Source: a virus
DNA: 57,804 nt
Reading direction: 5' to 3' (one strand)
Virus record (IMG/VR): IMGVR_UViG_3300045988_015817
The notes below the pieces were generated by a model, which saw only the letters and a list, made by a program, of their open reading frames with translations, was not told the origin of the DNA and searched no databases. The position numbers and the translations under genes were made by a program. This document shows positions 8,937 through 26,705 of the stretch, piece by piece. Within the stretch, counting starts at the first letter, position 1, and each line of letters begins with the position of its first letter.

Positions 8937-8948
8937 TTCTGTTCCTCC

Positions 8949-10181: not shown

Positions 10182-10210
10182 CTCATTATAATATATGATT
10201 TTTTTGCGAG
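10182..10210 (-). promoter_or_regulatory. Promoter-like motif copy b
   Basis: Minus strand reads ctcgcaaaaaaatcatatatTATAATgag, upstream of the 9843..10148 gene. Confidence 0.5.
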
Positions 10211-10211
10211 T

Positions 10212-11042: not shown

Positions 11043-11057
11043 TTTGTTTCTCCTTTC

Positions 11058-11903: not shown

Positions 11904-11924
11904 TTTGACTCCTTTCTGAAAAGC

Positions 11925-12200: not shown

Positions 12201-12212
12201 TTTGACTCCTTT

Positions 12213-12245
12213 CTAGAAAAGCTTAAAGGCCATGTTTCCATAGCC
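12213..12245 (-). terminator. Rho-independent terminator (part of a 55-nt repeat)
   Basis: Minus RNA folds as GGCUAUG-GAAA-CAUGGCC followed by UUUAAGCUUUUCU. Confidence 0.6.
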
Positions 12246-12258
12246 TCTAGCCGATCAC

Positions 12259-12534
12259 TTAATGATTCTCACAATGCTTAATGTTGAAATCCACTAATGC
12301 TTTGAGGACTTCAGGGTTCTTTACATTCTCATTGATCATCAGGTTGTAACAGCAATTCATTCCCTGGTCGAATCCTTTATGGTACATCGATTCCATGACA
12401 TTTGCAAGGCCATGTCCAATACGATTACCAATCAGATAACAACCAGCTAACCACGCTACTACTTCAATCTGATCTTTATGATCGTGCACAAACTCCTTTA
12501 CTCCGTTCAACTTCTGTTTAGTTTCTTCTTTCAT
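12259..12534 (-). CDS. Small membrane protein (91 aa), paralog of 11925..12200
   Basis: SD-led track ORF that aligns with 11925..12200. Confidence 0.75.
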   Translation of the reverse strand: MKEETKQKLNGVKEFVHDHKDQIEVVAWLAGCYLIGNRIGHGLANVMESMYHKGFDQGMNCCYNLMINENVKNPEVLKALVDFNIKHCENH

Positions 12535-12566
12535 TTTAATACTCCTTTCGTGTTAAACAATAAGTT

Positions 12567-12595
12567 CTCATTATAATACATGATTTATTTGCGAT
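12567..12595 (-). promoter_or_regulatory. Promoter-like motif copy c
   Basis: Minus strand reads atcgcaaataaatcatgtatTATAATgag. Confidence 0.5.
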
Positions 12596-12623
12596 AAAGA
12601 AGAGAGGACCTGAATTAGTCCTC
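12596..12623 (-). terminator. Rho-independent terminator with the stop codon in its loop
   Basis: Minus RNA folds as GAGGAC-UAAUUCAG-GUCCUC followed by UCUUCUUUAU. The UAA of the 12615..12770 gene lies in the loop. Confidence 0.55.
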
Positions 12624-12770
12624 ATCCTCTTTTGAGTCGGTTGACTCTATAGCTTTTACCCTTTCATCGACTGCTTCATCGATATGCATCTGTGTTAAAC
12701 AGATTCCTAAGAATCCTGCTATCGCCGTGCATCCGATCTGTCCAATCTTTAACAAAGTTTCTTTGCTCAT
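12615..12770 (-). CDS. Small membrane protein with acidic tail (51 aa)
   Basis: Hand-translated: MSKETLLKIGQIGCTAIAGFLGICLTQ...KEDED. GGAGGTGATAAAATG start context. Confidence 0.55.
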   Translation of the reverse strand: MSKETLLKIGQIGCTAIAGFLGICLTQMHIDEAVDERVKAIESTDSKEDED

Positions 12771-12791
12771 TTTATCACCTCCTATTATATA

Positions 12792-13031
12792 CTATGATTT
12801 AGTTGCGAGACGGTTGAGTTCATTCATCATGATGTGTATGCCTTCAAGCCTACCTGTTAAACGTTCTGTTTCCTTAATAATTTTCAGTCCTTCTGCCGAT
12901 TCTTCATCTGGTAATGATTCTGCTTCCTTGTTTAATTCTTTTGCTCGTGCCAAGATTTTCTCTGCCTCTCTGTTAGCAAAGTCAATCATTACTAATAACT
13001 TATTGGTTTCTATGATTTTTTCTACTGTCAT
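12792..13031 (-). CDS. Coiled-coil protein (79 aa)
   Basis: SD-led track ORF, helical and charged throughout. Confidence 0.7.
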   Translation of the reverse strand: MTVEKIIETNKLLVMIDFANREAEKILARAKELNKEAESLPDEESAEGLKIIKETERLTGRLEGIHIMMNELNRLATKS

Positions 13032-13048
13032 ATTTAACTCCTTATAAT

Positions 13049-13123
13049 TTACTTGTGATCATGTCTATCGCATACTATCATGACTATAAACGCGGTTAAA
13101 ACTGCTAATAAGAATGTATCCAT
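13049..13123 (-). CDS. Possible 24-aa hydrophobic micropeptide
   Basis: Hand-translated: MDTFLLAVLTAFIVMIVCDRHDHK. An AGGAG lies 9 nt upstream, and the ORF fills an otherwise empty gap. Confidence 0.3.
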   Translation of the reverse strand: MDTFLLAVLTAFIVMIVCDRHDHK

Positions 13124-13135
13124 AATAACTAACTC

Positions 13136-13621
13136 CTAATAAATATCAATGTGGTCTACTTCGCTTTGCCATTGTGGGTAGGCGTATGCACAACTGCCAT
13201 GCTCCTTAACTTCCGATGATAAGCTTGATTCATTTACAACGAATTCTACAATTGATCCATTTGCATTTTGACGTCTCGTAGAATCAGTATCTTTATCCGA
13301 TTTGCAGTCAGCAAGTATACCAGTTATCGTTGTACCGTTCTTTAACACAATATCAATGTATTGTCCAACTTGAGTAGTGTAATATGAGCCTACAGCAATA
13401 CACCAACGTCCATCGTATGTCCAAATGCCAGACGAATCAAGTCGATATTTTGATTTCATTTCATGTTGGTCCGTCCCTACACTCGTAATACAATCTGCAT
13501 CCATGTATGAGAAGAATCCATTTTGATCCGGAACTGATTTTGTTTCGCCGATAGGAGATCTTACAACTGGTGTGTCGTTTTCTTCCACACTAATGTCCGG
13601 TTCAAAGTGATACGGTGTCAT
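13136..13621 (-). CDS. Hypothetical protein; C-terminal half possibly a DPBB/3D-like cell-wall-active fold (161 aa as annotated)
   Basis: Track ORF. CIAVGSYY..GQYIDIVLKNGTTITGILADCKSDKD..GSIVEFVV loosely resembles 3D/RlpA-type barrels. No SD precedes the ATG, and an in-frame TGA lies 17 codons upstream (see findings). Confidence 0.6.
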   Translation of the reverse strand: MTPYHFEPDISVEENDTPVVRSPIGETKSVPDQNGFFSYMDADCITSVGTDQHEMKSKYRLDSSGIWTYDGRWCIAVGSYYTTQVGQYIDIVLKNGTTITGILADCKSDKDTDSTRRQNANGSIVEFVVNESSLSSEVKEHGSCAYAYPQWQSEVDHIDIY

Positions 13622-13669
13622 GTAAGTATCTTCTAATTCAGCAGTTTTTCTTTGCAGTTCTTTTACGAT

Positions 13670-13783
13670 TCAGTTGGTTTCTTCTTGCTGTTTATCATAC
13701 TCGTATCTAGTCCATGCTCGAAACGATCCCAGGATCACGAGCATGATAACACAGATTATGAATAATTTATCTTCCTTCTTCAA
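13670..13783 (-). CDS. Small signal-anchor ORF (37 aa, TTG start) ending at a TGA that is in frame with 13136..13621
   Basis: Hand-translated: (M)KKEDKLFIICVIMLVILGSFRAWTRYEYDKQQEETN. AAGGGAG lies 6 nt upstream of the TTG. Confidence 0.35.
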   Translation of the reverse strand: MKKEDKLFIICVIMLVILGSFRAWTRYEYDKQQEETN

Positions 13784-14105
13784 TCTCTTTTCTCCCTTTA
13801 GCTTCATTGTATTCTATTGGAGTTGCAGACCAGCAATACCAATTGTCTTGTACACGCCGACCAGCATGAACTCTACAATCTCCTGCACCATGATTATATT
13901 TATCTGGTTTGTATCTCTCGCAATAAGACACACAGTCTTTGCAGAAACATTTTGCTGTAGGACCTCCTTTGAACCTACTTTTAAGCTTCTTCTGGTACCT
14001 ACGGTTTTCTGCTGCTTCCTTAGCGAGTGCGGTAAGTACTGCTATTACTGCTACTACAATTATAAATACTGATATTACACCAATACTTGCAAATATCTTA
14101 ATCAT
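13767..14105 (-). CDS. Membrane-anchored Cys-rich protein (112 aa)
   Basis: N-terminal TM helix followed by CFCKDCVSYC..DC..YCW; SD-led. Confidence 0.75.
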   Translation of the reverse strand: MIKIFASIGVISVFIIVVAVIAVLTALAKEAAENRRYQKKLKSRFKGGPTAKCFCKDCVSYCERYKPDKYNHGAGDCRVHAGRRVQDNWYCWSATPIEYNEAKGRKEIEEGR

Positions 14106-14117
14106 TTTGACTCCTTC

Positions 14118-14150
14118 CTAGAAAAGCTTAAAGGCCATGTTTCCATAGCC
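14118..14150 (-). terminator. Rho-independent terminator (second copy of the 55-nt repeat)
   Basis: Hairpin and U-tract identical to 12213..12245. Confidence 0.6.
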
Positions 14151-14170
14151 TCTAGCCTTAACTTTTGTTC

Positions 14171-14599
14171 TCAGATCTTAGTTTTAGGAAAGATCCCTGG
14201 GAACGCCTTACTGAGTATTGCGCCTCCGTTACCTTCGAAGACCATAACCCCGATGCTCAATCCAGTCCAAGCTGCCAGCGTTAAGCCTGACTTGATCATT
14301 TCTAACTTCGAGTTAGTTTTGGACTGTAACAGTTCACGTTCTCTCAGATCAAGTTCCCGTTCTTTATTGCTCATCTCTTTTTCAGATAAGCGTTCTTTAC
14401 TAAGGATCTCTTTCGTTTTGAGATCGTACTCCTGTTTAAGTTTGTCCTCTTCTAACTTCAATTTATAGAAGTCAACCAAGTTCTCGGCAATAGCGTTTCG
14501 CTCGTCTCCGATTTTCTCATCAAAGAGTTTATTGTCCTCTTCGATAATTGTCTGCTCCAACACTTCTCTTAAGTCTGTAGTTCCTTCTTCTCTTGCCAT
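14171..14599 (-). CDS. Coiled-coil protein with C-terminal membrane helix (142 aa)
   Basis: SD-led track ORF. Glu/Lys-rich region followed by LTLAAWTGLSIGVMVF. Confidence 0.8.
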   Translation of the reverse strand: MAREEGTTDLREVLEQTIIEEDNKLFDEKIGDERNAIAENLVDFYKLKLEEDKLKQEYDLKTKEILSKERLSEKEMSNKERELDLRERELLQSKTNSKLEMIKSGLTLAAWTGLSIGVMVFEGNGGAILSKAFPGIFPKTKI

Positions 14600-14629
14600 T
14601 TTAAACTCCTTTCTAATTTACAACAAGTT

Positions 14630-14658
14630 CTCATTATAAGCCTTGTTTTATTTGCGTT
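14630..14658 (-). promoter_or_regulatory. Promoter-like motif copy d (the -10 element overlaps the stop codon of 14634..14876)
   Basis: Minus strand reads aacgcaaataaaacaaggctTATAATgag. Confidence 0.45.
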
Positions 14659-14876
14659 TCGGACATACGCTGTACTTCGAACGTTACAGTGTCAGATTTG
14701 TATATATCTTGGAGCGCGCCTTTGCCTTTAACCTCCAGGGCACAGTAGTATCCACTGCCTTCGTCCCTAGCGATTTTGATTATGCCTGGGCAAGATATTT
14801 TCACCGTATTTTTACCAACGTGAAAACCTGCAATATACCCGATGGTTACACATATAATAGCTACTAAAATATTCAT
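14634..14876 (-). CDS. Small N-terminally anchored protein (80 aa)
   Basis: Track ORF trimmed to MNILVAIICV, which is preceded by AAGGAGGAAATTAAAATG. Confidence 0.7.
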   Translation of the reverse strand: MNILVAIICVTIGYIAGFHVGKNTVKISCPGIIKIARDEGSGYYCALEVKGKGALQDIYKSDTVTFEVQRMSETQIKQGL

Positions 14877-15292
14877 TTTAATTTCCTCCTTAAACAATTG
14901 TACAGACTGATCTTACATCCTATCACGCATCCATTATTGTCTACGATAGCTTCGAGATTTCTGTCTTTAGCAATTCCTCGAATGTTGTCGAGGACGAATC
15001 TTGCTGTTGCTTCTTCGTCCGCTCGTACATATTGCATTTCTGCTTCTGATAAGAAACCCCCGTGAAGAATGTCGGGTTTACAATAATACTTGTAACGTTC
15101 TTCACAATCTTTCACCACCTTTTTAAATGCGCATACCTTGTAATATTGATACCACTTGTAATAGAAGTAGATGCTTACGCGTCCGGTCTCAATGACAACT
15201 GTACATACAGGCCATCCATTTCTATCAATCATATTCTTTACAATCTCTGGTGCATGGCCAACCGCAGCCACGCTTACACATGTTTTAAACAT
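14873..15292 (-). CDS. Hypothetical protein (139 aa), paralog of 15304..15621
   Basis: Shares MFKTC..VSxYFxYKWYxYYKVCAFKKxVK with the neighbouring gene. Confidence 0.8.
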   Translation of the reverse strand: MFKTCVSVAAVGHAPEIVKNMIDRNGWPVCTVVIETGRVSIYFYYKWYQYYKVCAFKKVVKDCEERYKYYCKPDILHGGFLSEAEMQYVRADEEATARFVLDNIRGIAKDRNLEAIVDNNGCVIGCKISLYNCLRRKLK

Positions 15293-15303
15293 TATTTTCC
15301 CTC

Positions 15304-15621
15304 CTATTTGTTGCTGTTTTCAGGGCTTCCTTGAATTCCGGATTTTGCGAATTGTTCCGATGATACGCGTTTCTTCGGTGCGAGTACACGATTGAGTGCA
15401 TCGGCTGCACTCTGATATCTGAGCTTATTAACATAGTTTTTCACCGCCTTTTTAAATGCACATACTTTATAATACTCATACCATTTATAGCTTACATAGA
15501 AGCTTACTTTATCTGTTTCATAGATAATTGTATCTACATGGAATCCAATAACATCCAGTGTATGATTGATAATATCTGGCGTCTGGCCTGCTCTAGGGAC
15601 GATTATACATGTCTTAAACAT
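15304..15621 (-). CDS. Hypothetical protein (105 aa), paralog of 14873..15292
   Basis: SD-led, with a TAATG junction. Confidence 0.8.
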   Translation of the reverse strand: MFKTCIIVPRAGQTPDIINHTLDVIGFHVDTIIYETDKVSFYVSYKWYEYYKVCAFKKAVKNYVNKLRYQSAADALNRVLAPKKRVSSEQFAKSGIQGSPENSNK

Positions 15622-16181
15622 TACATTCCCTCCTTCATAGTTTTAAACAACTGATTAAAGCTGTCATCATTGAACTCAATTGCATGGTAAATATCTTTCG
15701 AAATGTTCCTGCTATCGACTGGAGTATCCTTTGGTAACTTACCAGCGATTAACGGGCTCTTGCCAATTGTCTTCATTACTGAATTCAGCTCAATGTATTT
15801 TGACAGCTTTACAGCCTTGAGCCCAGACAAATCAATAGGTGCTGACGTGGTGTGCATATCAAATATATTATTGTCCAGGTACAGCATCTTCTTATCGATA
15901 TCTCTTGTTGAGAATGGAATAATCATACTCTGATCATTATCTCGATATAAGAATACTGCAGACAACATACCTCCACAGATCGGAACTAACCGAATAGAAT
16001 TGCATTCCGACGTCACCTTACTCTCATTGAAATTACCATCCAATCCCATAAAATCTTCAACATACTCTACTACCATTTTTGTTTCCTCCTTATCATTTTT
16101 CTTAGCGTTCATTTTGAACGGATGCTTAATAGCCTTACTTACAATAATTACCCCTGAAATTACAAATCCGATCAGTGTCAT
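15621..16181 (-). CDS. Membrane-anchored hypothetical protein (186 aa as annotated; may start at 16220 if the in-frame TGA is decoded)
   Basis: Track ORF. There is no SD before ATG 16181, but a strong GGAGG-N8-ATG at 16220 is followed by AAA TGA in the same frame (see findings). Confidence 0.65.
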   Translation of the reverse strand: MTLIGFVISGVIIVSKAIKHPFKMNAKKNDKEETKMVVEYVEDFMGLDGNFNESKVTSECNSIRLVPICGGMLSAVFLYRDNDQSMIIPFSTRDIDKKMLYLDNNIFDMHTTSAPIDLSGLKAVKLSKYIELNSVMKTIGKSPLIAGKLPKDTPVDSRNISKDIYHAIEFNDDSFNQLFKTMKEGM

Positions 16182-16252
16182 TACGACATAAGTAATTGGT
16201 TTACTAAATAATCATTTCATTATAATTACCTCCTTATGATAATAGTTTATTT

Positions 16253-16283
16253 CTCATTATAGTACATGAGATTTTTTTGCGAG
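16253..16283 (-). promoter_or_regulatory. Promoter-like motif copy e (16-nt spacer)
   Basis: Minus strand reads ctcgcaaaaaaatctcatgtacTATAATgag. Confidence 0.5.
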
Positions 16284-16313
16284 AAAAAAGAGGAAGCTAA
16301 TTATCTGGTTTCC
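16284..16313 (-). terminator. Probable terminator of an orphan ~100-nt transcription unit
   Basis: Minus RNA folds as GGAAAC-CAGAUAAUUA-GCUUCC (one mismatch) followed by UCUUUUUUCU. The loop resembles the loops of the terminators at 12596 and 16417. Confidence 0.4.
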
Positions 16314-16366
16314 GTGCTCCATCTTTCGATTTCGTTTCCATAAGATAACTGTCCAGCCCAGGTCAT
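16301..16366 (-). CDS. Possible 21-aa micro-ORF inside the orphan unit
   Basis: Hand-translated: MTWAGQLSYGNEIERWSTETR. Its UAA sits in the terminator loop, as in two neighbouring real genes. The nearest GAGGAG is 18 nt upstream, which is a poor SD spacing. Confidence 0.25.
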   Translation of the reverse strand: MTWAGQLSYGNEIERWSTETR

Positions 16367-16387
16367 TAGCCTAGGATTCGCTTACTC

Positions 16388-16416
16388 CTCATTATAAGAA
16401 TTGAATTTTTTGCGAG
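16388..16416 (-). promoter_or_regulatory. Promoter-like motif copy f
   Basis: Minus strand reads ctcgcaaaaaattcaattctTATAATgag, nearly identical to copy h. Confidence 0.5.
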
Positions 16417-16446
16417 AAAAAAGAAAGAGACCTTGAATTAGGCCTC
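16417..16446 (-). terminator. Rho-independent terminator with the stop codon in its loop
   Basis: Minus RNA folds as GAGGCC-UAAUUCAA-GGUCUC followed by UUUCUUUUUUCU. Confidence 0.55.
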
Positions 16447-16587
16447 CTTTACTTGAAACAAAGAATTCCAAAATGTTGTACATTCTTCAACAGTTATATC
16501 ACTCTCAGGTTTGATCTTCAAATACTCTCTATTTTTTCTATCATCTTCCTCAGTGATACGCTCTGCTGTTCTAATCTCTCTAAACAT
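16438..16587 (-). CDS. Small acidic protein (49 aa)
   Basis: Hand-translated: MFREIRTAERITEEDDRKNREYLKIKPESDITVEECTTFWNSLFQVKEA. GGAGGTATTTATTATG start context. Confidence 0.55.
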   Translation of the reverse strand: MFREIRTAERITEEDDRKNREYLKIKPESDITVEECTTFWNSLFQVKEA

Positions 16588-16608
16588 AATAAATACCTCC
16601 TTTTATTT

Positions 16609-16637
16609 CTCATTATAATATATGAAATATTTGCGAA
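16609..16637 (-). promoter_or_regulatory. Promoter-like motif copy g
   Basis: Minus strand reads ttcgcaaatatttcatatatTATAATgag. Confidence 0.5.
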
Positions 16638-16668
16638 AAAGGAACGGGCTTTGAATCGCCCGCGTCCC
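16636..16668 (-). terminator. Rho-independent terminator
   Basis: Minus RNA folds as GGA(CG)CGGGC-GAUUCAAA-GCCCG(U)UCC followed by UUUUUCG, directly after the stop at 16674. Confidence 0.5.
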
Positions 16669-16673
16669 TAGAC

Positions 16674-16892
16674 TTATTTAGTTTTCTTCTTTGATTTTTT
16701 AGAATCATACCACATCTGCAGTTGACCATACTCCCATACGCATGCCGCATATCCAACAACACTCAATCCTAATCCGATCCAGAGACCTACATTGTAGATC
16801 ATCCAAAATCCAATTAACATTACTAATGTTGGTGCGCATACGAAACTTAAAGCTGCCATCAATGCAAATGCTCGTTCAATCTTTCTTTTCAT
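16674..16892 (-). CDS. Two-helix membrane protein (72 aa)
   Basis: SD-led track ORF with two hydrophobic segments and a Lys-rich tail. Confidence 0.75.
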   Translation of the reverse strand: MKRKIERAFALMAALSFVCAPTLVMLIGFWMIYNVGLWIGLGLSVVGYAACVWEYGQLQMWYDSKKSKKKTK

Positions 16893-16916
16893 ATTAGTTA
16901 CCTCCTAAATATAATC

Positions 16917-16945
16917 TTCATTATAAGAATTGAATTTTTTGCGAG
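16917..16945 (-). promoter_or_regulatory. Promoter-like motif copy h
   Basis: Minus strand reads ctcgcaaaaaattcaattctTATAATgaa. Confidence 0.5.
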
Positions 16946-16985
16946 AAAAAAGAAACACCCAATGAATATCCAGCGATACTCTGAC

Positions 16986-17018
16986 GTCCCTAGACCATCG
17001 TATAAACAGCCTAGGGAC
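16986..17018. repeat. Perfect 8-bp inverted repeat GTCCCTAG-N17-CTAGGGAC just downstream of the holin gene
   Basis: Read directly. It is built from the over-represented GTCCCTAG octamer. No adjacent U-tract. Confidence 0.6.
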
Positions 17019-17029
17019 ATATATGCATA

Positions 17030-17254
17030 CTACTGCCTTTTTGCCGAAGCAGCTTTGCGTTTGTTATGCTGGCTAGTGCTAATACCGAGCAGGGCACCAA
17101 GAAAAGTATCTACTGCAGTAATAGTTCCTACGACCTGGTCTCCATACGGAAGTCCCCAGATGGTAGCAAGTGTGAAATATAAAGTACCAATTGCTGGTAA
17201 AGCAATCAGAGCGATCCATTTAAGAATATCATATTGTTTATTTGTTAACTTCAT
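17030..17254 (-). CDS. Holin, Dp-1-like family (74 aa)
   Basis: Track ORF trimmed to MKLTNKQYDILKWIALIALPAIGTLYFTLATIWGLPYG..GTITAVDTFLGALLGIS, with a GGAAGGAG SD. This matches the Dp-1 holin signature as I remember it. Confidence 0.75.
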   Translation of the reverse strand: MKLTNKQYDILKWIALIALPAIGTLYFTLATIWGLPYGDQVVGTITAVDTFLGALLGISTSQHNKRKAASAKRQ

Positions 17255-17582
17255 TTTGACTTTCTCCTTCCGATATTGGTGGTACGGTAAATATTTTGAG
17301 TCGGTTGACTCCCTCCATAACCCTCTTTGCTGAGCCATTTCCGCCTAGGGCTTTGTACGGTTCATAAAGATAGTCGCTCAGATTCTCATATTCATCTTTG
17401 GTGATCCATCCGCGTTCGATGTATGTCATCCCTAACGCTACAATGCGGTCATGGGCCAGTCCAATTAGCATCTGACTTTGTAATGATTTTTTGTCATCTT
17501 TTTTCTGGAGCCAAGCCCAGAATCCCGAGGATGCAATAACCGAGCACAACACAGTGACAATTATCGATACGATGCTTTCCAT
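17238..17582 (-). CDS. Lysis-cassette-associated membrane protein (114 aa)
   Basis: N-terminal TM helix followed by LAHDRI..GWITKDEYENL..LYEPYKALGGNG, a motif I recall from proteins adjacent to holins in Firmicutes phages. Confidence 0.6.
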   Translation of the reverse strand: MESIVSIIVTVLCSVIASSGFWAWLQKKDDKKSLQSQMLIGLAHDRIVALGMTYIERGWITKDEYENLSDYLYEPYKALGGNGSAKRVMEGVNRLKIFTVPPISEGESQNEVNK

Positions 17583-17592
17583 AATTTCCTCC

Positions 17593-17976
17593 TTATGCGA
17601 TTACTCTATCAAGTTCATAAGGAATAAACATCCATGCGTCATTACCTAATACAGAATAAGCTATTGAAAATATCTTAGTTCCATAATCGGCTATAAAGTT
17701 GCAGACCCATTCTTCAGCCCATATCCAATATTCTGGCTTTACAACCTTATGAATATCGTCTAGCAAACTGTAACTAACAAGAGCACAATGACCTAGCTCA
17801 TGGATAAGAACTTTCATAAGGAGCGCACCAGATAAGCTCCTCGACATGAAAATAGTTGCAAGGTTTGGATCAGTGGTGGCTAATGTCATTTTTCCAGTCC
17901 TATCCATAAGCATTTTGTCATTTGGGTTTACGAACTTTATTCTCCATAAATATCCATTCATTGAGAATCTGTCCAT
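17593..17976 (-). CDS. Small HExxH zinc metallopeptidase-like protein (127 aa)
   Basis: Contains LIHELGHCAL (HExxH). The SD is weak. Confidence 0.6.
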   Translation of the reverse strand: MDRFSMNGYLWRIKFVNPNDKMLMDRTGKMTLATTDPNLATIFMSRSLSGALLMKVLIHELGHCALVSYSLLDDIHKVVKPEYWIWAEEWVCNFIADYGTKIFSIAYSVLGNDAWMFIPYELDRVIA

Positions 17977-18638: not shown

Positions 18639-19043
18639 TTAGGCAAGCCTACGAACAATAAAAGCGCTGTTAGCAGCGACAGTTACGTCCGCAGTACCAT
18701 TATTAGTTACGGTTATACGATCGTAGTCCCCGCAGCAATTCTTGATTAAAGTTGAAGTAGCTACGTTGTTAGAAGCGTTAGCGGCTCCAGGAGTAGCAAC
18801 CATAGTTGTCTCTGGCATGGTTACGCCACCTAATTGAAAAGCAAGCTGAACAGGAGTGCCTGCGACTGCTCCCGAGATGTTACCAGCAAAAGAAACTTCA
18901 TAAATACCATTAGCTCTCATTTTGACAGATCCTGTGTTTTCCCTATGGCACTCAGCACAACCTGTTTTGAGAAGAACTTTGTCAAAGGTAATGGACTGAC
19001 CAGCAGGCAATACCTGGGCAGTAGTATTTGATAATTCAATCAT
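18639..19043 (-). CDS. BclA C-terminal-domain-like (C1q/TNF-like jelly-roll) protein (134 aa)
   Basis: MIELSNTTAQVLPAGQSITFDKVLLKTGC..CHR...GIYEVSFAGNI resembles BclA-CTD-like proteins of Clostridia. This is from memory, not from a search. Confidence 0.5.
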   Translation of the reverse strand: MIELSNTTAQVLPAGQSITFDKVLLKTGCAECHRENTGSVKMRANGIYEVSFAGNISGAVAGTPVQLAFQLGGVTMPETTMVATPGAANASNNVATSTLIKNCCGDYDRITVTNNGTADVTVAANSAFIVRRLA

Positions 19044-19107: not shown

Positions 19108-19857
19108 TTAGCAGCAACCGTTATTATTTGATCCGCAGTAGCATCCAAACCCGTAGTTTGCATATGGATTTGGTACTGTAAATGCCGGAACAGCCGCTGG
19201 ACGTAACTGATTAACGAGATACTGGTTCTGAGCACACTGAGATGCTGTAAGCTCCAGTTTGTTAATAGCAGCCTGCTGACTAGCGATTGTCTGATCTTTC
19301 GCATCCATCTGCATTTTGACCATTTCATCATGCAGAGCGCGATAGTTGGCATTATCGTTGTCAATAATGTCTCTTGTCTGATTTTGAATAGCGTTAGTGA
19401 TAGCGCATGTGTTTGTAGCCATATCATACTGAATCTGAGCCTGACCCTGACGGTTCTGGCAGCAGCAATCAGCTAACTGTGTCTGGATTGCATTTGTTGA
19501 CTGTAAGTTTGCGATATTAGAAGCATTAGCACTGTCGCTAATAGCATTCTGAAGAGCGTTAGTAGACTGAAGCAGGCTAGTGTTCATAGCATAGAATCCA
19601 TCGCAAATTCCATTGTCAATGCCGCTAAGCTTGTTAAGGATTGACTGGGTATCAAATCCTCTCTGGAGATCACCGTTAGTTGCACAGCCCTCTCCATTTC
19701 GTCCCTGGCCACCCCAGCCATTTCCCCATCCGCCGAAGATAGCAAACAGGATGATTAACACCCACCATCCATTTCCATTACCCCAGCCATCACCGTTTCC
19801 ATCTTTTGTAACAGCAGCAATATCTGCAAGACTTGGTGCACTACCCATATTAAACAT
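19108..19857 (-). CDS. G/W/N-rich membrane protein with Q/N-rich coiled region and Cys-rich C-terminus (249 aa)
   Basis: GNGDGWGNGNGWWVLIILFAIFGGWGNGWGG, then ...CCCQ..., ending in ...GFGCYCGSNNNGCC. SD-led. Confidence 0.8.
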   Translation of the reverse strand: MFNMGSAPSLADIAAVTKDGNGDGWGNGNGWWVLIILFAIFGGWGNGWGGQGRNGEGCATNGDLQRGFDTQSILNKLSGIDNGICDGFYAMNTSLLQSTNALQNAISDSANASNIANLQSTNAIQTQLADCCCQNRQGQAQIQYDMATNTCAITNAIQNQTRDIIDNDNANYRALHDEMVKMQMDAKDQTIASQQAAINKLELTASQCAQNQYLVNQLRPAAVPAFTVPNPYANYGFGCYCGSNNNGCC

Positions 19858-20709: not shown

Positions 20710-21057
20710 TTATGCTAAAGACTCACTAGTAGCCTCTAATTCTGAGCCGTCAGTTGTAATAACTGGGTCATTCTTGTAAGCCCTGATGGTAACATCATTG
20801 GATAATCCATCATGGATCTCAATAACGTTATCCAGTTTGAACCCATCGAATGTGGTGACATTTCCATTGTCGTCTGTGATCTCCATATGAGAGATATTGT
20901 CGGCATTTCGGGCCGTAGAAGCGATCCTGTCAAACACTGCTGGGGATTCATATGTTGAAGTAATGTTCAGATAAGTTCTACCTGATTGATTCTGAGCATA
21001 CTCTCTTGTAAATTTGCGAATATCAACTGTCGTTCCGTTTCCGAATTTAAGTTTCAT
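20710..21057 (-). CDS. Hypothetical protein (115 aa)
   Basis: AGGAGG SD. Overlaps the end of the rSAM gene by 11 nt. Confidence 0.75.
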   Translation of the reverse strand: MKLKFGNGTTVDIRKFTREYAQNQSGRTYLNITSTYESPAVFDRIASTARNADNISHMEITDDNGNVTTFDGFKLDNVIEIHDGLSNDVTIRAYKNDPVITTDGSELEATSESLA

Positions 21058-22384
21058 TTTGATCCTCCTTACTTAATTCTTTAAGCATATTAAGTTCTTC
21101 CTCTCCGATAATAGGAATGGCCCATTCGTCCGGGCAGTATATTTTGAATCTCTGTTTCCAATGTTTCTTACGATACCACTTATTCCAGAAGTATGCATTT
21201 GCAAGAGATCGAGTCTTGTGCATATCGCAAATATAAGTACAACGAGAATCTGGAGTTCCATTTTCTTGGTAGTTGTACGCAGAGCACCAACTGCAACCCT
21301 CAGCTATAGGACAATAGAAACACTCGTCACTAGACTCTGTTCTTCTGTCGATCTTATTCAGACATTCGACGCATTGCTTGTCGCATGTTCTCTGTGCAAT
21401 CCCGAAATTTACGTGACCAATTCTAAGAGGCTCTCGAGATGTTCCTAGACTGCTCTCCATATATCTTATACATGGATAAAGCCATCCGTCTGGGTCCATC
21501 GCCAGCATGAAGCCAGTTCCTCCACACCAGTTTTCGACATCCGTTTCTTCCTTTGGTTTGAAGAAGTCATTCTCGAATAATGCCATGAAATGGTCGTCGG
21601 CTAAGTCATTTTCAAGCCAATAATCGGCTAACATTTTGAGCTGCTCATAATAGATTTTCGCGTGCTCCAATGTCCATCCTTTTTCATAAACGACATTTGC
21701 ATTAATATCTTTGTATCCAAGTTCTACCATATGCTTAATCGCCGAGAATAGATGCTGCACATTACCTGGCGCTATGGTGATCTTAGAGCCCATATAGTAT
21801 CCTCTTGATATCCAATCTTGGGCTCCAGCTACTGCTATGTCATAAGACCCAGTACCATCTGGAAAGACTCTACAAGCATCGTGCAGAGCCTTATTTCCAT
21901 CGATGGTAATTGAGAAAGAGAGGTTATGACGCCATTTGTTCAGGAACTTCTGAACCTTAGGCTCAAAATATAATACACCATTTGAGCAAATCGAAATACA
22001 AAATTTTGTTGCCCATGGGTGCATCAACTCGATAGCCTTATCATAGAAATACGTGCAAATCTGATCAATAAGATCCACGCATAAGAAAGGCTCTCCGCCA
22101 ATAAACTCAATGATAATACCAGGTGATGTAGAGGCGTCGATGTAGTTACCGAGGCGTTCATCACCGGTAAGAAGCATATCAATAAGTTTCTTTGCATCTT
22201 CGAACTTCATTTTTCTCTTGCCTTTGTTTATCTGGTAACAGTAGGTACAGCACAAGTTACACTCGTCTGTTACTTGAAAAGTCACGGTACGAGATAAAGT
22301 TCTTCTGTCAGATGCATTATTTGTAATAATTGTCTCAGGATACAACCTTCCAATCATATCCTGAAACTGTTCAAACTTCTTCAT
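21047..22384 (-). CDS. Radical SAM enzyme with C-terminal SPASM-type Cys-rich domain (peptide/protein maturase-like, 445 aa)
   Basis: CNLCCTYC gives a Cx3Cx2C motif. The C-terminal region contains CGGTGF..DPDGWLYPC, CDKQCVEC and CFYCPIAEGCSWC. Confidence 0.9.
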   Translation of the reverse strand: MKKFEQFQDMIGRLYPETIITNNASDRRTLSRTVTFQVTDECNLCCTYCYQINKGKRKMKFEDAKKLIDMLLTGDERLGNYIDASTSPGIIIEFIGGEPFLCVDLIDQICTYFYDKAIELMHPWATKFCISICSNGVLYFEPKVQKFLNKWRHNLSFSITIDGNKALHDACRVFPDGTGSYDIAVAGAQDWISRGYYMGSKITIAPGNVQHLFSAIKHMVELGYKDINANVVYEKGWTLEHAKIYYEQLKMLADYWLENDLADDHFMALFENDFFKPKEETDVENWCGGTGFMLAMDPDGWLYPCIRYMESSLGTSREPLRIGHVNFGIAQRTCDKQCVECLNKIDRRTESSDECFYCPIAEGCSWCSAYNYQENGTPDSRCTYICDMHKTRSLANAYFWNKWYRKKHWKQRFKIYCPDEWAIPIIGEEELNMLKELSKEDQNET

Positions 22385-22388
22385 AGGC

Positions 22389-22718
22389 TTAGCCCTCTAA
22401 TACGGTAATGTGTACGAGGTGCTCTGAAAAGTCTGTTACTGCCCATCTGAATTTAACATCTTTTCCTTCATGCTCCAGAACACGAGGCTGTAAAGACTTT
22501 TCTAACTCAGCTTTAGCAATATCGTAGGAACACTCAGCCTCTTCAAGCAGTTTGTGATAATGCTTGAATGGTACTGAGTCCAGCACTGAAGCATCCGTAT
22601 CATCTTTCGCCGACTCAAGCATATGAGCTACAACGTCTTTTCTAGTCATAACCTCGTATGCAAGTCTCTGTAAATAGTCAGCTGTTTCCTTGTTAAGTTC
22701 TAATGTAAAGTTTTTCAT
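22389..22718 (-). CDS. Small acidic helical protein, putative accessory or partner of the maturase (109 aa)
   Basis: SD-led track ORF sandwiched between the Cys-repeat protein and the rSAM gene. Confidence 0.7.
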   Translation of the reverse strand: MKNFTLELNKETADYLQRLAYEVMTRKDVVAHMLESAKDDTDASVLDSVPFKHYHKLLEEAECSYDIAKAELEKSLQPRVLEHEGKDVKFRWAVTDFSEHLVHITVLEG

Positions 22719-22748
22719 ATTAGTTAACTCCTTTTCTTTTAATAGTTT

Positions 22749-24188
22749 TTATGCTTTGATATTAAAATGTAATTCGCTATAATATGTATTAGCGAATGTC
22801 GCTAATGGCTTTCCCTTGTTAATCTTTAGCTTATATGTTGGATAAACTGGAACAAGATACCAATCATTTTTGCTATCTAATTTTATAGTCGGTTCGTTGG
22901 CACTCATTTTGGAAGGGTCAAGCAATGAATCATGTTCATTAATAAATGTTATTGCTGTGTCGCCCAGATTTGTTTTCTGATTTAAAATCGTTAAACCATC
23001 AATATTAAAATTATAATATGTTCCTTTTCTAGTTACGCTTACAGATTTAGCAGTTACTAAATCGGTGTCAACTAAATAAGTCCATTCACCATTGGCAATC
23101 AGATCTACTGTTGGGTCCTGAACTCCACCTTGGACTACAGCTCCAAATGCTTGAGCTTGACATGTACCAGTACACGTTGCTGAGCAGGTAGTAGCACATG
23201 CGTTTTTACATTGTCCACTGCATTCATTACTACAACCATCACATCCCGAACCACAACCAGAACAACCGCTACATCCTCCAGAACAACCGCTACATCCTCC
23301 AGAACAACCAGAACAGCCTTGACATCCTGTTGTACATGCTGATTCACATGATCCTTCGCACCCACTACAATTACTAAAGCAACCAGCGTCACAAGACCCA
23401 TCACAGCCAGCATAGCACCCATCGCAATTGCCTCCGCATCCACTTGATCCAGAACATCCTCCACAAGATGAACATGAAGAACACGAACTAGCACAGCCAG
23501 TGCAACTATAGCATGTGGCACAAGCCGAACCTTTTCCTTTCGATGAACACGAACTAGAACAAGATCCTCCGCATCCGGCGCATCCTGAGCATCCTTCACA
23601 TGATCCCGAGCACCCACTGCACCCACTGCACGATTTCCCACACCCTTCACAAGATCCAGAACATCCTCCTTGGCATCCACTGCTACACCCTATGCAACCA
23701 GAGCAAGAATTACACCCGCCGCAATTTCCACTACATCCACCACAACCACTAGAGCCACTACCTCCAGATCCACCAGATCCGCTACATCCGCCAGAACAGC
23801 TACTACAACCACTACATGTATTACCACACGTCCCTACACATAGTCCAGAGCATGCTCCACGACATGAAGAGGTAGCCCCATCGATTGGCTCTTTAGACAA
23901 CGAGTCAGTGTAAGATAGTAATTCGTTGTTAAATGATGACGGAATCTTAGCGCCTGTCTTAAGATCGACAGTATTCAAATTGCCATGATCTTTAATGTTC
24001 AACAAAGGCTCGATTACTTTTTTACCTTGGTCTGCTGTGACTTTGGTTCCAGATGTAGGAGTTGTGGAGAAGTCGTACGATGCAGATGCGAACCCAGTCA
24101 TAGAACCATTGTATGCTCTACGTTGCATTTCAGTTTTTACCTTGGCTTTAAGAGTGTTCATTTCTGCCGCGGTAAGAAAATTAGGCAT
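22749..24188 (-). CDS. Cys/Gly/Ser-repeat protein with globular N- and C-terminal domains (putative fibre-like structural protein and rSAM substrate, 479 aa)
   Basis: Track start (GTG 24197) moved to ATG 24188 (AAGGAGG SD). The central ~235 aa contains about 62 Cys spaced Cx2C/Cx3C. The C-terminus is beta-rich. Confidence 0.85.
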   Translation of the reverse strand: MPNFLTAAEMNTLKAKVKTEMQRRAYNGSMTGFASASYDFSTTPTSGTKVTADQGKKVIEPLLNIKDHGNLNTVDLKTGAKIPSSFNNELLSYTDSLSKEPIDGATSSCRGACSGLCVGTCGNTCSGCSSCSGGCSGSGGSGGSGSSGCGGCSGNCGGCNSCSGCIGCSSGCQGGCSGSCEGCGKSCSGCSGCSGSCEGCSGCAGCGGSCSSSCSSKGKGSACATCYSCTGCASSCSSCSSCGGCSGSSGCGGNCDGCYAGCDGSCDAGCFSNCSGCEGSCESACTTGCQGCSGCSGGCSGCSGGCSGCSGCGSGCDGCSNECSGQCKNACATTCSATCTGTCQAQAFGAVVQGGVQDPTVDLIANGEWTYLVDTDLVTAKSVSVTRKGTYYNFNIDGLTILNQKTNLGDTAITFINEHDSLLDPSKMSANEPTIKLDSKNDWYLVPVYPTYKLKINKGKPLATFANTYYSELHFNIKA

Positions 24189-24320: not shown

Positions 24321-26705
24321 TTAACCCCACGTAGCTGCTAATGGTACCCAGGCAGAACCATTGTAGAATTTAGCCACACCTGAAGTATCAATCCATAGAA
24401 GCTTTGTATTAGATGGGGCTGAAGCGCCGTAATGATATCCTCCAGGATCATCCGATCCAACTGGGTACCAACCTGGACCGCCAAAAGATCCACCGTATGG
24501 AATATAAACATGCATCATTTTACTATTAGGGTTATAGACTAACTGGCCGACATATGGAGAAGATGGAAAACTGCCATTCTCACCAATATAAAGCTCATTA
24601 GTGACATACCAATATTTCCCAGTGTAAACGTATAAAACATTCGTTTCGTTTGGATTCACCCACAAATCTCCAGGCTTAGGATTGGTTGGTTTAGTTGCTC
24701 CATAGCTAACGCCTCCAGACTCTGCTGATTTCTTGATTGACTCTAACAGATATTTACCATTTGGAGCATCTGCGTGGAATGACTGAACATTACCTGGCGA
24801 GATAATGTGAGTAGCTCCATCGAATGCTTTTAGATCGAAATTAGGAAACTCTGTAGCCTGAGTGATCTTCATAGTAGAGGATTGGTATGGGGCGAATACT
24901 GTGGTGTCAGAATCGTCAAGAGTTACCATGATGTCCGAAATCGTAGCATTAACATTTGAAGCTGGGTTATTATGTTGAATCGCAATAATGACATGATGTT
25001 CGCTCCAATCATAAGCATCATGTTTTAAAATATCAGAAAAGTTTTTAACGTATACATTTGTATTTGTAAAAACTTGAATGTACGCTTCAACATTAGTTAC
25101 ACTTTTTTTAGCGATTATTTTTAGGTCATGTCCCGCTTTTAGCATTCTCAAAAGAAATGCATTGCATTCATCAGTACTAATAATGAAAGCTAAAAATGAT
25201 TTTTTAGTTGTTCCTTCGATTTTAATCATTCCTTCTTTTAAAACTGTAAATGTGAGACCGTTATTATTCGTAGTTTTCTGAGCATACGGATAAGCAAGAA
25301 TATTCTTCCCGTATGTCTTAATATCATAGCCTGAGTATGGAACAAATGGATCGTCAGCATTAGTTACAATTCTAATATTTGACACTGTTCCATGAACATC
25401 CCCAGATGTTTTATGATACTGAACTACATAATTGCATTTATAGTTTGTCCAATCATAATCATTTTTTGACAAAGTTTCAACGTTAGTTACCCAAGAACCA
25501 TCATTTTTTTTAAAAATTTGAAAAAACGAGTGCAAATCTCCTTTAATTGTCGTATCATATTTAGAATACAACGTATTTATAACACCATTAAATAGATTCT
25601 CAACATTCTCATATAACGCAAAACCAGGTTGTATATCGCCTGATATGGTGCCATCCAATGATACTGTTCCTTCTTTAGTGTATACCATGGTCACACCGTG
25701 TGAAATGCTTCCGTTAGCTTTAACATATGGAAAAGGTAATAAATTCCTCGTAGCCTTGCCAATCATCAACGGGGCTTCTACAGTACCTACGAGATCCATT
25801 TTAGTCGACTCAATTAGCGACACTTTCTCCTTACCTAGCTTTTCTGTTTCTAGAGTAAGTTTAGCACCAAGGTCGCCTTCGAGTTTGTTTTTCATATTCT
25901 CAAACCACTTATCGAACTCGGCCTGAGATGATTTTTCCCACTGCTGGAATGTTGACCAGTTAGCATCGTAAGCGGCTTTAATCGTAGCAAACCACTGGTC
26001 ATAGCCGTTCTTAATGCTGTCATACCATTTCTGATAGTCCGATTTTGAAGTTGCTTCCCAATCAGCAATCTCTTTCTTAGCGGCAGCAAGCCAAGCCTGA
26101 TAATCCTGTTTCTCACCATTCATCCAAGTATTGAAGTTGGCAGTATTCTCTTCTACAAACCTATTCAGGATATCTTTCCACTGAGGTATAAGCTGTTCAA
26201 TGCTGATTACCTCAAGGATACCTGTAACAAATGGACACACACTCGTCCCTACACAGTTCTCAATGTCTGCCTGTCTAATGGACGTAACCTCTTTGCCAAC
26301 CTTAACGTAAGCCAACGGATACTGATGAACTTCCTTAGCATTTGTCAATGATGGCTTGGTAGGCGTAGAAGATGGCGTTCCTTTAATTAGTTTAATGCTA
26401 TTCGCCCTTACCGCCTCGACAGAGTTGATCTCCAGAACAATTGCGTCGATTCTGTCCATAAGAATCTCTGATGGTGGAATCGTCACTGGGTAAAGTGCAT
26501 CGTTGTAACTCCAAGTATGATTGAACCATGCTCGGCCAGTTCCAACTGTTACGTTCATCTGGTTGCTCTGCTTTACAACAAAACAGTCGCCAATAGATGC
26601 GAATATTCCATCTCGAATTAGACCATCAAATAATCTCGAAATGTCTGTAGCATCATATAATCTATCATGATCTACGGAATTAAAAAATCCAGATGCAAAA
26701 CTCAT
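24321..26705 (-). CDS. Tail fibre / receptor-binding protein (794 aa)
   Basis: Position after Dit and the Gp37-like protein. N-terminus FFNSVDHDRLYDATDISRLFDGLIRDGIF is typical of Firmicutes phage fibre N-termini, as remembered. Two similar internal domains. Confidence 0.7.
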   Translation of the reverse strand: MSFASGFFNSVDHDRLYDATDISRLFDGLIRDGIFASIGDCFVVKQSNQMNVTVGTGRAWFNHTWSYNDALYPVTIPPSEILMDRIDAIVLEINSVEAVRANSIKLIKGTPSSTPTKPSLTNAKEVHQYPLAYVKVGKEVTSIRQADIENCVGTSVCPFVTGILEVISIEQLIPQWKDILNRFVEENTANFNTWMNGEKQDYQAWLAAAKKEIADWEATSKSDYQKWYDSIKNGYDQWFATIKAAYDANWSTFQQWEKSSQAEFDKWFENMKNKLEGDLGAKLTLETEKLGKEKVSLIESTKMDLVGTVEAPLMIGKATRNLLPFPYVKANGSISHGVTMVYTKEGTVSLDGTISGDIQPGFALYENVENLFNGVINTLYSKYDTTIKGDLHSFFQIFKKNDGSWVTNVETLSKNDYDWTNYKCNYVVQYHKTSGDVHGTVSNIRIVTNADDPFVPYSGYDIKTYGKNILAYPYAQKTTNNNGLTFTVLKEGMIKIEGTTKKSFLAFIISTDECNAFLLRMLKAGHDLKIIAKKSVTNVEAYIQVFTNTNVYVKNFSDILKHDAYDWSEHHVIIAIQHNNPASNVNATISDIMVTLDDSDTTVFAPYQSSTMKITQATEFPNFDLKAFDGATHIISPGNVQSFHADAPNGKYLLESIKKSAESGGVSYGATKPTNPKPGDLWVNPNETNVLYVYTGKYWYVTNELYIGENGSFPSSPYVGQLVYNPNSKMMHVYIPYGGSFGGPGWYPVGSDDPGGYHYGASAPSNTKLLWIDTSGVAKFYNGSAWVPLAATWG

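Follow-up and report, generated by a model that had tools for sequence, protein, structure and literature searches.

A cysteine-repeat protein and a radical SAM/SPASM enzyme encoded in the tail module of a siphovirus-type phage: a candidate cross-linked tail stalk

The window analyzed here is the whole 57,804-nt stretch of the IMG/VR virus record IMGVR_UViG_3300045988_015817, the complete genome of a siphovirus-type gut phage, in which nearly all long open reading frames (ORFs) lie on the minus strand. Its tail-fiber module contains a three-gene cassette (21047..24188, minus strand) that encodes a 479-aa protein with a long cysteine repeat, a 109-aa accessory protein (hereafter, the partner) and a 445-aa radical S-adenosylmethionine (SAM) enzyme with a SPASM domain. 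The reading that we favor, at a probability of roughly 0.55, is that the Cys-repeat protein is a tail-associated stalk or adhesin whose repeat is cross-linked by the radical SAM enzyme, probably through thioethers, before assembly. Sequence comparison provides the evidence that carries this reading: the family to which the enzyme belongs, the homology of the partner to accessory proteins of that family, a linkage between the enzyme and the Cys-repeat protein that holds in both directions, the location of the cassette in tail modules of three types, purifying selection on the repeat cysteines, and the modular C-termini of the Cys-repeat proteins.

The cysteine-repeat protein, its enzyme and the partner

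The gene for the Cys-repeat protein (22749..24188, minus strand; 479 aa plus stop) likely starts at the ATG at 24188, which has GGAGG 8–9 nt upstream (ribosome-binding site (RBS) AAAGGAGG); the alternative GTG at 24197 falls within the RBS. The protein is made up of a helical N-domain (residues 1–108, 23865..24188), a Cys/Gly/Ser repeat (residues 109–343, 23160..23864) and a beta-rich C-domain (residues 344–479, 22752..23159). A first-pass annotation of this DNA had counted 62 Cys in the protein and placed the Cys-rich region in a central stretch of about 235 aa at 23160..23864, and both figures proved exact: every one of the 62 Cys lies within the 235 residues of the repeat, which also contain 65 Gly and 56 Ser (26% Cys, 28% Gly, 24% Ser). 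Successive Cys are 3 (27 times) or 4 (31 times) residues apart, with single spacings of 6, 9 and 14, giving CxxC and CxxxC shares of 46% and 53%. AlphaFold2 (AF2) gave no confident fold for the repeat (predicted local distance difference test (pLDDT) ∼30). The 479-aa protein has no twin-arginine translocation (TAT) signal and has no match in Pfam, NCBIfam (TIGR04114 included) or PHROG. The homolog from locus L043 scores 21.3 against TIGR04114 (cutoff 20), and the repeats of relatives carry the precomputed Pfam assignment PF27846 (tSAM_targ_Cxxx_rpt), marked faint; PF27846 lies outside the Pfam set used on the 479-aa protein.

Comparison of 33 genomes of the same phage species (conspecifics) revealed that every repeat sequence is different, with zero internal stops and the frame kept in all. 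Only 6 of the 62 Cys columns are variable, compared with 100 of the 179 non-Cys (linker) columns of the repeat and 18 of the 108 columns of the N-domain. The kept frame and the disparity between Cys and linker columns signify that selection preserves the cysteine lattice while the residues between drift or diversify; the repeat cysteines are under purifying selection, and the region encodes protein rather than being an accident of composition. The perfect 21-nt tandem duplication that the first-pass annotation had located at 23259..23300 is present as two perfect copies, which encode GGCSGCS twice, and Tandem Repeats Finder extends it to 2.5 copies, 100% identical, at 23257..23309 (minus strand). 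Conspecific genomes exhibit in-frame indels of 3–45 nt in this region, and the tandem repeat marks ongoing expansion or contraction of the Cys repeat. A template repeat of the type used by diversity-generating retroelements was considered as the source of the linker hypervariability and rejected, as there is no long repeat of the region elsewhere in the 57,804 nt; a reverse transcriptase was not searched for.

The N-domain is predicted with high confidence to form four helices (AF2 pLDDT 87–98). A near-invariant junction motif, S-S-C-R-G-x-C-[ST]-G-L-C-x-x-x-C (residues 107–121), closes the N-domain and enters the repeat, and residues R24, C109, C113, G115, C117 and C121 are invariant in the alignment of the N-domain family (A4). 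A word-indexed search (5.8e9 database) recovered 158 relatives, and an exhaustive search of 1.84e9 representatives recovered 186 clusters at 50% identity; the cassette is common, including in prophages of Lachnospiraceae, Oscillospiraceae, Blautia, Eubacterium and Slackia. The N-domain has no relative in the PDB by sequence or by fold, and its matches in BFVD are solely unannotated homologs from gut viromes (for example, one with the automatic label 'TNFR-Cys domain-containing protein'). It defines a phage-specific family. Neither the N-domain nor the C-domain gave a tblastn match in the 50,697 GenBank phage records of INPHARED, so that no cultured phage in that set carries either, and megablast of the region returned a single unannotated fecal contig, which overlaps the fiber gene. 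The SSCRGxC[ST]GLC junction is the best candidate for an enzyme recognition site. A shorter form, CxGxCxGLC, seemed to be shared with the target of the Bacteroidales locus L044 and was considered as a general motif; it was rejected, being invariant only in the phage N-domain family.

The enzyme (21047..22384, minus strand; TIGR04115, phrog_1802) contains the Cx3Cx2C motif noted in the first-pass annotation as CNLCCTYC (C42-x3-C46-x2-C49, 22238..22261), and the SPASM cysteines suspected there form a complete set (21227..21526; C287...G300xxxxC305, C355xxC358x5C364xxC367 and C386). Both sets of cysteines are conserved in alignment A1. The match to the NCBIfam model TIGR04115 ('radical SAM peptide maturase, CXXX-repeat target family') reaches 495.9 bits (cutoff 350, E 8e-149) over positions 2–359 of 359. 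The runner-up models, PapB NF047865 (167.3 bits, cutoff 340), QhpD-type TIGR03906 (104, cutoff 453) and SCIFF TIGR03974 (96.4, cutoff 425), all remain below their cutoffs, and the families that rank after TIGR04115 are all maturases that form Cys thioethers in peptides or proteins. The closest solved structure is that of CteB (5WGG, E 1.4e-18), with residues 23–375 of the enzyme aligned to residues 88–426 of CteB; the alignment to the SCIFF-maturase profile starts at position ∼83. Both starting points show that the enzyme is without the N-terminal peptide-recognition domain of ∼85 aa (the recognition element, RRE, of RiPPs, which are peptides made by the ribosome and modified after translation), and its absence makes a separate recognition partner plausible.

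The partner gene (22389..22718, minus strand) is preceded by a 30-nt gap with an RBS, and its stop lies 4 nt from the start of the enzyme gene. The protein had been described as acidic and helical, in agreement with its ∼22 acidic versus 14 basic residues and with the AF2 model (single sequence, pLDDT 77), which comprises a long two-helix hairpin and a short beta hairpin. The model, which was built without an alignment, looks unlike the PqqD-type RRE winged helix (a three-stranded sheet followed by three helices). Foldseek returned generic coiled-coil matches only (E ≥ 0.2), and the partner profile has no sequence match in the PDB. Searches of Pfam, NCBIfam and PHROG gave no match to the partner, with nothing for TIGR04116 even at E ≤ 10, and BLASTP against the partners of L043 and L044 also found nothing; the homology is visible with profiles only. 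When 24 phage-type partners (A2) were compared in hhalign with 17 Bacteroidales proteins of TIGR04116 type (A3), the two alignments matched over their full length (93 columns) at 91% probability and E 1.1e-6. With the partner as the query, jackhmmer picked out exactly one ORF at each locus for 165 of the 170 sequences scanned (169 loci plus the window), and all 49 canonical accessory ORFs were among them, and a C-terminal W-x-[IL]-[ND]-F-x-T motif is common to the phage partners and the Bacteroidales proteins. On the basis of these profile comparisons, the partner is classed as a divergent remote homolog of TIGR04116 (CXXX_rpt_assoc).

Linkage of the cassette and comparison with known systems

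Scans with the enzyme alignment yielded 80 loci from genomes and 80 from viruses (some of the viral ones being loci already in the collection), and the enzymes were clustered at 90% identity into 84 clusters, 38 of them in a Firmicutes/phage clade and 46 in Bacteroidales. The Firmicutes/phage-clade enzymes, from genomes of Agathobacter, Lachnoclostridium, Blautia, Eubacterium, Oscillospiraceae, Desnuesiella and Slackia and from IMG/VR contigs, are 43–75% identical to the 445-aa enzyme, with that of L043 at 38%. An N-domain-Cys protein accompanies the enzyme in 31 of the 38 clusters and a partner in 35; the misses are mostly contigs cut beside the enzyme, or permuted or variant architectures. 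TIGR04119 is found in none of the 38 (the lone extra TIGR04119-type signal, in L132, is a second radical SAM gene and not a TIGR04119 protein), and TatC only in L064. The 46 Bacteroidales clusters have no N-domain; their targets have an N-terminal leader of 36–50 aa, a TIGR04116-type accessory is present in all 46, TatC lies nearby in 27, and TIGR04119 is present in at least 22. In the reverse direction, five of five N-domain proteins picked independently of the enzyme are followed, two to three genes downstream, by a gene for a protein of ∼90–96 aa and a Radical_SAM gene.

The first-pass annotation had proposed a large Cys-repeat substrate embedded in a tail module, and this proposal is supported by the two-way co-occurrence across phage lineages and, in the window, by the Dit, Tal and fiber genes upstream and the holin downstream. 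Tail genes flank the cassette in relatives too, as had been suggested for checking: siphovirus Dit/Tal genes in this genome and L148, PBSX-like baseplate genes followed by holin and lysin in L049, L053 and L061, PAAR, sheath-initiator and wedge genes in L170, and collagen-like fiber genes on both sides in L043. L061 and L049 are prophage loci of cultured bacteria, Desnuesiella massiliensis mt10 (NZ_LN879456.1, 155040–176332) and Eubacterium pyruvativorans i6, respectively. With flanks that differ to this extent, the linkage is not simple vertical synteny. A related 57-kb phage (L218, IMGVR_UViG_3300033053_000010; Tal 46% identical) has no cassette, its gene order being Dit, Tal, a 1374-aa fiber and then directly holin and amidase; with the 1374-aa fiber in the place of the cassette, the cassette behaves as an exchangeable host-range module. 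All named hosts that were retrieved are gut, rumen or other anaerobe-associated taxa, in keeping with the oxygen sensitivity of the enzyme and with a requirement for cross-linking that is independent of oxidation.

The first-pass annotation had also likened the cassette to the catalogued CXXX-repeat system, and this comparison holds in part. The models of that system are TIGR04114 (target repeat), TIGR04115 (radical SAM enzyme), TIGR04116 (accessory) and TIGR04119 (a second maturase). Locus L044 (MT837480, a phage-labelled contig with bacterial content) contains the complete system: a target of 174 aa that bears a signal of twin-arginine type (SRREFFK), TIGR04115 (630 bits), TIGR04119 ('CXXX repeat peptide maturase', 235 bits), TIGR04116 ('CXXX repeat peptide modification system protein', 104.6 bits, cutoff 50), TatA and TatC. 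The phage cassette shares with it the radical SAM family, a homologous accessory of ∼90–110 aa, a target with Cys every 3–4 residues and small residues as linkers, and a target gene upstream of the enzyme gene. It differs in having no TIGR04119, TAT signal or nearby TatC, and in an accessory that remains below the curated cutoff; no protein of the window passes TIGR04116 or TIGR04114. Canonical targets are peptides of 90–250 aa with a leader of ∼36–50 aa, whereas the phage version is a 479-aa protein with a folded N-domain of ∼105 aa, encoded in a tail module; phage repeats reach 95 Cys, and C-terminal domains of binding type are possible. The spacing differs as well: CxxxC accounts for 87% and CxxC for 9% in the Bacteroidales clade, compared with 72% and 27%, respectively, in the Firmicutes/phage clade. 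The cassette is thus best described, from these family assignments, as a phage-adapted variant of the catalogued CXXX-repeat radical SAM system in which only TIGR04115 passes its curated model. In the Bacteroidales loci (L044, L076–L124), targets often stand beside TatA/TatC and ...PMGC is a frequent leader ending; in some loci (L091, L116) the target genes form tandem arrays of up to four.

PapB, the closest characterized enzyme family by hidden Markov model (HMM) score, is a radical SAM/SPASM enzyme that acts on the repeated motifs of PapA to give freyrasin, introducing one thioether per motif from Cys to Asp/Glu in CXXXD/E (PMC10739248). The score of the phage enzyme against PapB (167 bits) is under the cutoff (340), and the PapB substrate is a short leader-bearing peptide, whereas the phage repeat, with Ser, Gly and Thr as linker residues, has no conserved acidic position and only 9 Asp/Glu among its 235 residues (9 per 62 Cys). 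CteB, a SCIFF maturase, also forms thioethers and has a SPASM domain; its N-terminal recognition domain of ∼87 residues is without counterpart here, and the SCIFF substrate is a peptide of ∼45 aa. With scores below both cutoffs, no CXXXD/E motifs and no RRE, the cassette is neither a PapB nor a SCIFF system. A different kind of precedent comes from quinohemoprotein amine dehydrogenase, in which the radical SAM/SPASM enzyme QhpD places Cys thioether cross-links in QhpC, a subunit of a larger assembly. In that case, the modified protein is kept in an assembly and not released as a peptide, and the QhpD-type model TIGR03906 is the third-best match to the phage enzyme; however, the enzyme falls far short of the 453-bit cutoff, and QhpC has a few, non-repetitive Cys-Asp/Glu links and no phage context. 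The TIGR04115 family itself is, to our knowledge, biochemically uncharacterized. Full-text searches returned no account of this system, of any radical SAM enzyme that matures a phage tail protein, or of the N-domain, with a passing mention of prophages possible in the founding TIGRFAMs paper; the first-pass statement that no characterized example was known therefore stands, with no precedent in the searchable literature.

Terminal domains, proposed role and alternatives

The 136-aa C-domain is predicted by AF2 to contain eight strands (pLDDT 50–69). Homologs were found in this phage species only, at 66–94% identity. The first-pass annotation had likened this region to a fiber head, and the best Foldseek matches are indeed heads of fibers and receptor-binding proteins (RBPs): the atadenovirus fiber head (4UE0, E 0.045, probability 0.87) leads, and the RBP heads of TP901-1 ORF49 and bIL170 and reovirus sigma1 follow (E 0.045–1). 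At these E values and this model confidence, the C-domain is a weakly supported candidate for a receptor-binding head. Conspecific genomes end in the same 136-aa domain, in an unrelated domain of ∼190 aa (with at least two subtypes) or in no domain at all (six genomes), and most members of the N-domain family end 5–9 residues past the last Cys.

At the repeat/C-domain junction (AVVQGGVQDP, 23112..23138, minus strand), this genome has no homopolymer and an interrupted tract, GTC CAA GGT GGA GTT CAG, that is in frame. The conspecific loci (L001–L042) have a poly-G tract of G4–G9 after ...CQAQAFGAVV, ∼370–400 nt upstream of the partner gene. Tracts of G5, G9, or G7 followed by TAGTT leave the C-domain in frame, and it is out of frame or stopped with G4, G6, G7 and G8. 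It is in frame in 18 of the 33 conspecifics, out of frame or stopped in nine (seven by tract length and two by point mutations), and absent from the remaining six; out-of-frame C-domains are present in the protein database as separate gene calls of 141–145 aa, in clusters of 12 and 19 members. The poly-G junction looks like a site of slipped-strand phase variation, or possibly of frameshifting, of a receptor-binding head, with homopolymer assembly error as a further possibility. Hypermutable poly-G tracts are known in the receptor-binding genes of Campylobacter phages, where a variable G tract likewise switches a host-recognition domain in and out of frame among near-identical phages. In contrast, the tract described here parts the Cys-repeat stalk from the head, and in the present genome it is interrupted and fixed in frame.

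More distant relatives display further architectures. In L163 (6800..9229), the Cys repeat is fused to two ALK_LTK_GRD glycine-rich domains (E 7e-99), P0219 has a beta-rich C-terminus of ∼400 aa on its Cys-repeat protein, and P0182 has a CBM_4_9-like insert inside the N-domain (E 4.6e-4, below cutoff). The order is permuted in L070 (8850..9668), L072 (11897..12895) and L073 (8965..9678), in which the Cys repeat comes first and an N-domain-like domain of ∼100 aa, with the N-domain helix motif ...E[IM]N.L...V..E..RR, comes last. In L050 (8328..8858 and 8868..9665), and likewise in L049, L052, L055 and L142-type loci, there are two genes in succession, the first for an N-domain with 11–17 Cys and the second for a Cys repeat only (44–64 Cys, no N-domain). 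Read-through or selenocysteine insertion between the two L050 ORFs was rejected in favor of two separate genes, owing to a TAA TGA double stop, a strong RBS and an ATG. The longest phage-clade repeats contain 95 Cys in 473 aa. Two apparent variants were discarded: P0230 (1506 aa, with 10 matched stretches) is repetitive but unrelated to the family, and the 'C-terminal tail' of 100 aa in L134 results from reading the repeat out of frame.

Additional gene content was noted at some of these loci. L132 (7669..9573 and 15513..17849) has two tandem N-domain-Cys paralogs upstream of the enzyme, and another paralog, whose Cys pattern is different (CSCYQDCCNFNCSCDNNCC...), adjoins a second radical SAM gene. 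One subclade has one or two conserved extra genes per locus, for proteins of ∼176–202 aa with no family match, between the Cys-repeat protein and the partner (L043 9107..9715, L170 6689..7824, L173 6591..7199 and L175–L177); these may be additional system components. L177 (3707..8748) has a single N-domain-Cys protein with three Radical_SAM genes around it and a YadA_head-like protein (faint match) downstream.

From these observations, we propose that the cassette genes, which share a strand with the tail and lysis genes and have short gaps, are probably co-expressed with them late in infection. The 445-aa enzyme, having no built-in recognition domain, would work with the 109-aa TIGR04116-like accessory, and together they would engage the Cys-repeat protein, most likely via the N-domain and the SSCRGxC[ST]GLC start of the repeat. 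Many of the 62 cysteines would be converted to covalent cross-links, most probably Cys-derived thioethers as in the closest characterized relatives, and an unstructured Gly/Ser/Cys chain would become a stiff rod that resists proteases and redox changes and is independent of disulfides, which anaerobic hosts cannot supply. The N-domain would hold the rod on the tail, and an exchangeable binding domain, here the 136-aa beta-rich head, would stand at its end. It is very likely that the Cys-repeat protein is the substrate of the enzyme, because targets of this kind define the TIGR04115 family. Thioethers are the likely products, by analogy with PapB, CteB and QhpD, although the acceptor must differ from that of PapB because there are so few acidic residues in the repeat; and, judged from gene context and fusions, a place in the tail for the matured protein is plausible. 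The wider picture for phages of strictly anaerobic gut Firmicutes, a poly-thioether Cys-repeat rod (to ∼95 Cys) that takes the place of disulfides, with a new helical anchor and interchangeable heads that are phase-variable through poly-G tracts, is more tentative and falls somewhat short of an even chance.

Several observations weigh against the cross-linked stalk. The 479-aa protein does not match TIGR04114 or the partner TIGR04116, only 1 of 24 phage-clade partners matches TIGR04116 (E 0.046), and the sequence, fold and BFVD searches with the N-domain detected no similarity to known tail-attachment domains. As some loci have extra Cys-repeat proteins without an N-domain, the N-domain is not an obligatory recognition element, and the few Asp/Glu and the lack of a conserved acceptor mean that PapB-type chemistry cannot account for most of the cysteines. 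The fold matches of the C-domain are below significance. Finally, the composition of the repeat is metallothionein-like and compatible with metal binding, and non-structural cargo genes, too, are classically found in the gap between fiber and lysis genes.

The last two points each lead to an alternative explanation. As phage cargo, the cassette would make a RiPP product: the N-domain would be a long leader, and the Cys core would be cleaved and released, at lysis or during lysogeny and to the benefit of the lysogen, as a bacteriocin, signal or metal-binding peptide. The layout of precursor, accessory and enzyme is that of a RiPP cluster, the Bacteroidales relatives are small peptides with TAT-like signals beside TatA/TatC, the extra Cys-repeat genes of some loci have their own RBS and no N-domain, and the cassette occupies a known cargo hot-spot between tail fiber and lysis genes that is empty of it in a related phage. 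However, the gene lists examined for phage loci showed no peptidase (leader peptidases included), no transporter, no immunity gene and no signal peptide, cores reach the lengths given above with a domain sometimes C-terminal to the repeat, and fusions to fiber-like, CBM-like and head-like domains recur. A phase-variable head is hard to square with a discarded leader, and such a leader is not expected of a domain that can move to the C-terminus or be dispensable; moreover, no consensus promoter or terminator separates the cassette from the tail genes, and promoter-like repeats are confined to 10.2–16.9 kb. Release of a RiPP is thus unlikely. The second alternative, that the repeat is a metal or iron–sulfur scaffold (metallothionein-like, or a metal-stapled shaft comparable with the tip of T4 gp37 and its metal ions), would leave the enzyme a few modifications or a role in cluster handling or folding. 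The Cys, Gly and Ser content with CxxC/CxxxC spacing and the missing thioether acceptor suit this explanation, as do the TAT export of the bacterial relatives, appropriate for cofactor-loaded or folded cargo, and the auxiliary clusters that SPASM enzymes themselves bind. Yet all characterized close relatives of the enzyme are catalytic Cys cross-linkers, simple metal binding would not need strict co-inheritance of a dedicated radical SAM enzyme and accessory, and there are no metal-handling genes nearby, so we consider a metal scaffold rather improbable.

It is very improbable that the enzyme modifies some other target (a tail protein, host molecule or nucleotide) and that the Cys-repeat protein is a mere neighbor. 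Radical SAM genes of jumbo Erwinia and Salmonella phages, at ∼25% identity, do occur without such neighbors, and L177 has three radical SAM genes; nevertheless, the enzyme belongs to a family defined by Cys-repeat targets, and the two-way linkage to Cys repeats extends over ∼84 enzyme clusters, two phyla and unrelated flanks. That the Cys ORF is an artefact of assembly, or low-complexity repeat DNA without coding function, has a probability close to nil. Low-complexity DNA does open ORFs in other frames of the repeat (23135..23680, minus strand, 181 aa; 23515..23913, plus strand, 132 aa), themselves artefacts and not genes, and the protein has no database family match, but the frame and Cys kept by all 33 conspecifics, the confidently folded N-domain and the homologs in hundreds of clusters refute it.

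If the cross-linked stalk is correct, it would be the first tail component to be enzymatically cross-linked by a phage-encoded radical enzyme and the first role assigned to the TIGR04115 family. It would extend RiPP-type radical SAM chemistry from small secreted peptides to the structure of a virus particle, and reveal a new route to a rigid, redox-independent fiber in anaerobes. The cassette supplies biological context for a curated enzyme family, and the Bacteroidales form (46 of the 84 clusters) may be understood by analogy. Its position in a host-range region, with swappable and apparently phase-variable heads, makes it relevant to predicting host range and to the engineering of phages against gut anaerobes. 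Peptide and biomaterial engineers, by whom PapB is already used in this way, would also find a protein with dozens of programmable thioether staples of interest (PMC10739248; PMC12373016).

Genome setting and neighboring features

A perfect 55-nt terminal direct repeat (1–55 = 57750–57804; unit length 57,749 bp) indicates that the genome is complete and circular or circularly permuted. With falling coordinates, the late genes run from the large terminase (43219–44961) through the portal (41945–43207), a protease/capsid fusion (40066–41985), a 2363-aa ORF (28791–35882) that we take from its size and position to be the putative tape-measure protein, Dit (27886–28794), a Sipho_Gp37/Tal-like protein (26730–27869) and a 794-aa tail fiber/virion structural protein (24321..26705, minus strand; phrog_1220, E 1.5e-76 over the N-terminal 237 aa) to the three-gene cassette, several small ORFs and the holin (17030–17338). 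The cassette begins 132 nt downstream of the 794-aa fiber gene and has the same orientation as the tail-tip/fiber module in which it is encoded. N-termini homologous to that of the 794-aa fiber protein are found immediately upstream of the cassette in many related loci.

Scans for consensus promoters and terminators around the cassette gave sites no more frequent than chance. Elsewhere in the window, a conserved family of 37–56-nt repeats has seven copies, all within 10172..16967 and reading ...TTCTCATTATAAT..ATGA.TTTTTTGCG on the plus strand; when read on the coding (minus) strand, the copies include a TATAAT-like box and resemble promoters belonging to one temporal class. No copies are present in the structural/lysis block at 17–45 kb. 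As no promoter or terminator signal above chance was found around the cassette and the promoter-like repeats are limited to 10.2–16.9 kb, it is most likely transcribed with the late structural/lysis genes.

Downstream of the enzyme gene, a 115-aa ORF (20710..21057, minus strand) overlaps the enzyme stop by 11 nt. It was rejected as a fourth component, since its homologs occur solely in the same species and in L045, and its membership of the system is doubtful. Nearer the holin, a 249-aa protein (19108..19857, minus strand; phrog_16490) has a Gly/Trp/Asn-rich N-terminus, a hydrophobic stretch and the Cys clusters ADCCCQ and, at the C-terminus, GFGCYCGSNNNGCC. Two further proteins are encoded between the cassette and the holin, one of 134 aa (18639..19043, minus strand; phrog_20016) with a weak match to 'collagen like minor tail', and one of 127 aa (17593..17976, minus strand) with an HExxH motif (LIHELGH). 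Outside these genes, the window contains two 62-nt repeats that are 95% identical and 1.9 kb apart (12191..14157), and two 85-nt direct repeats that are 87% identical and 128 nt apart (50833..51045).

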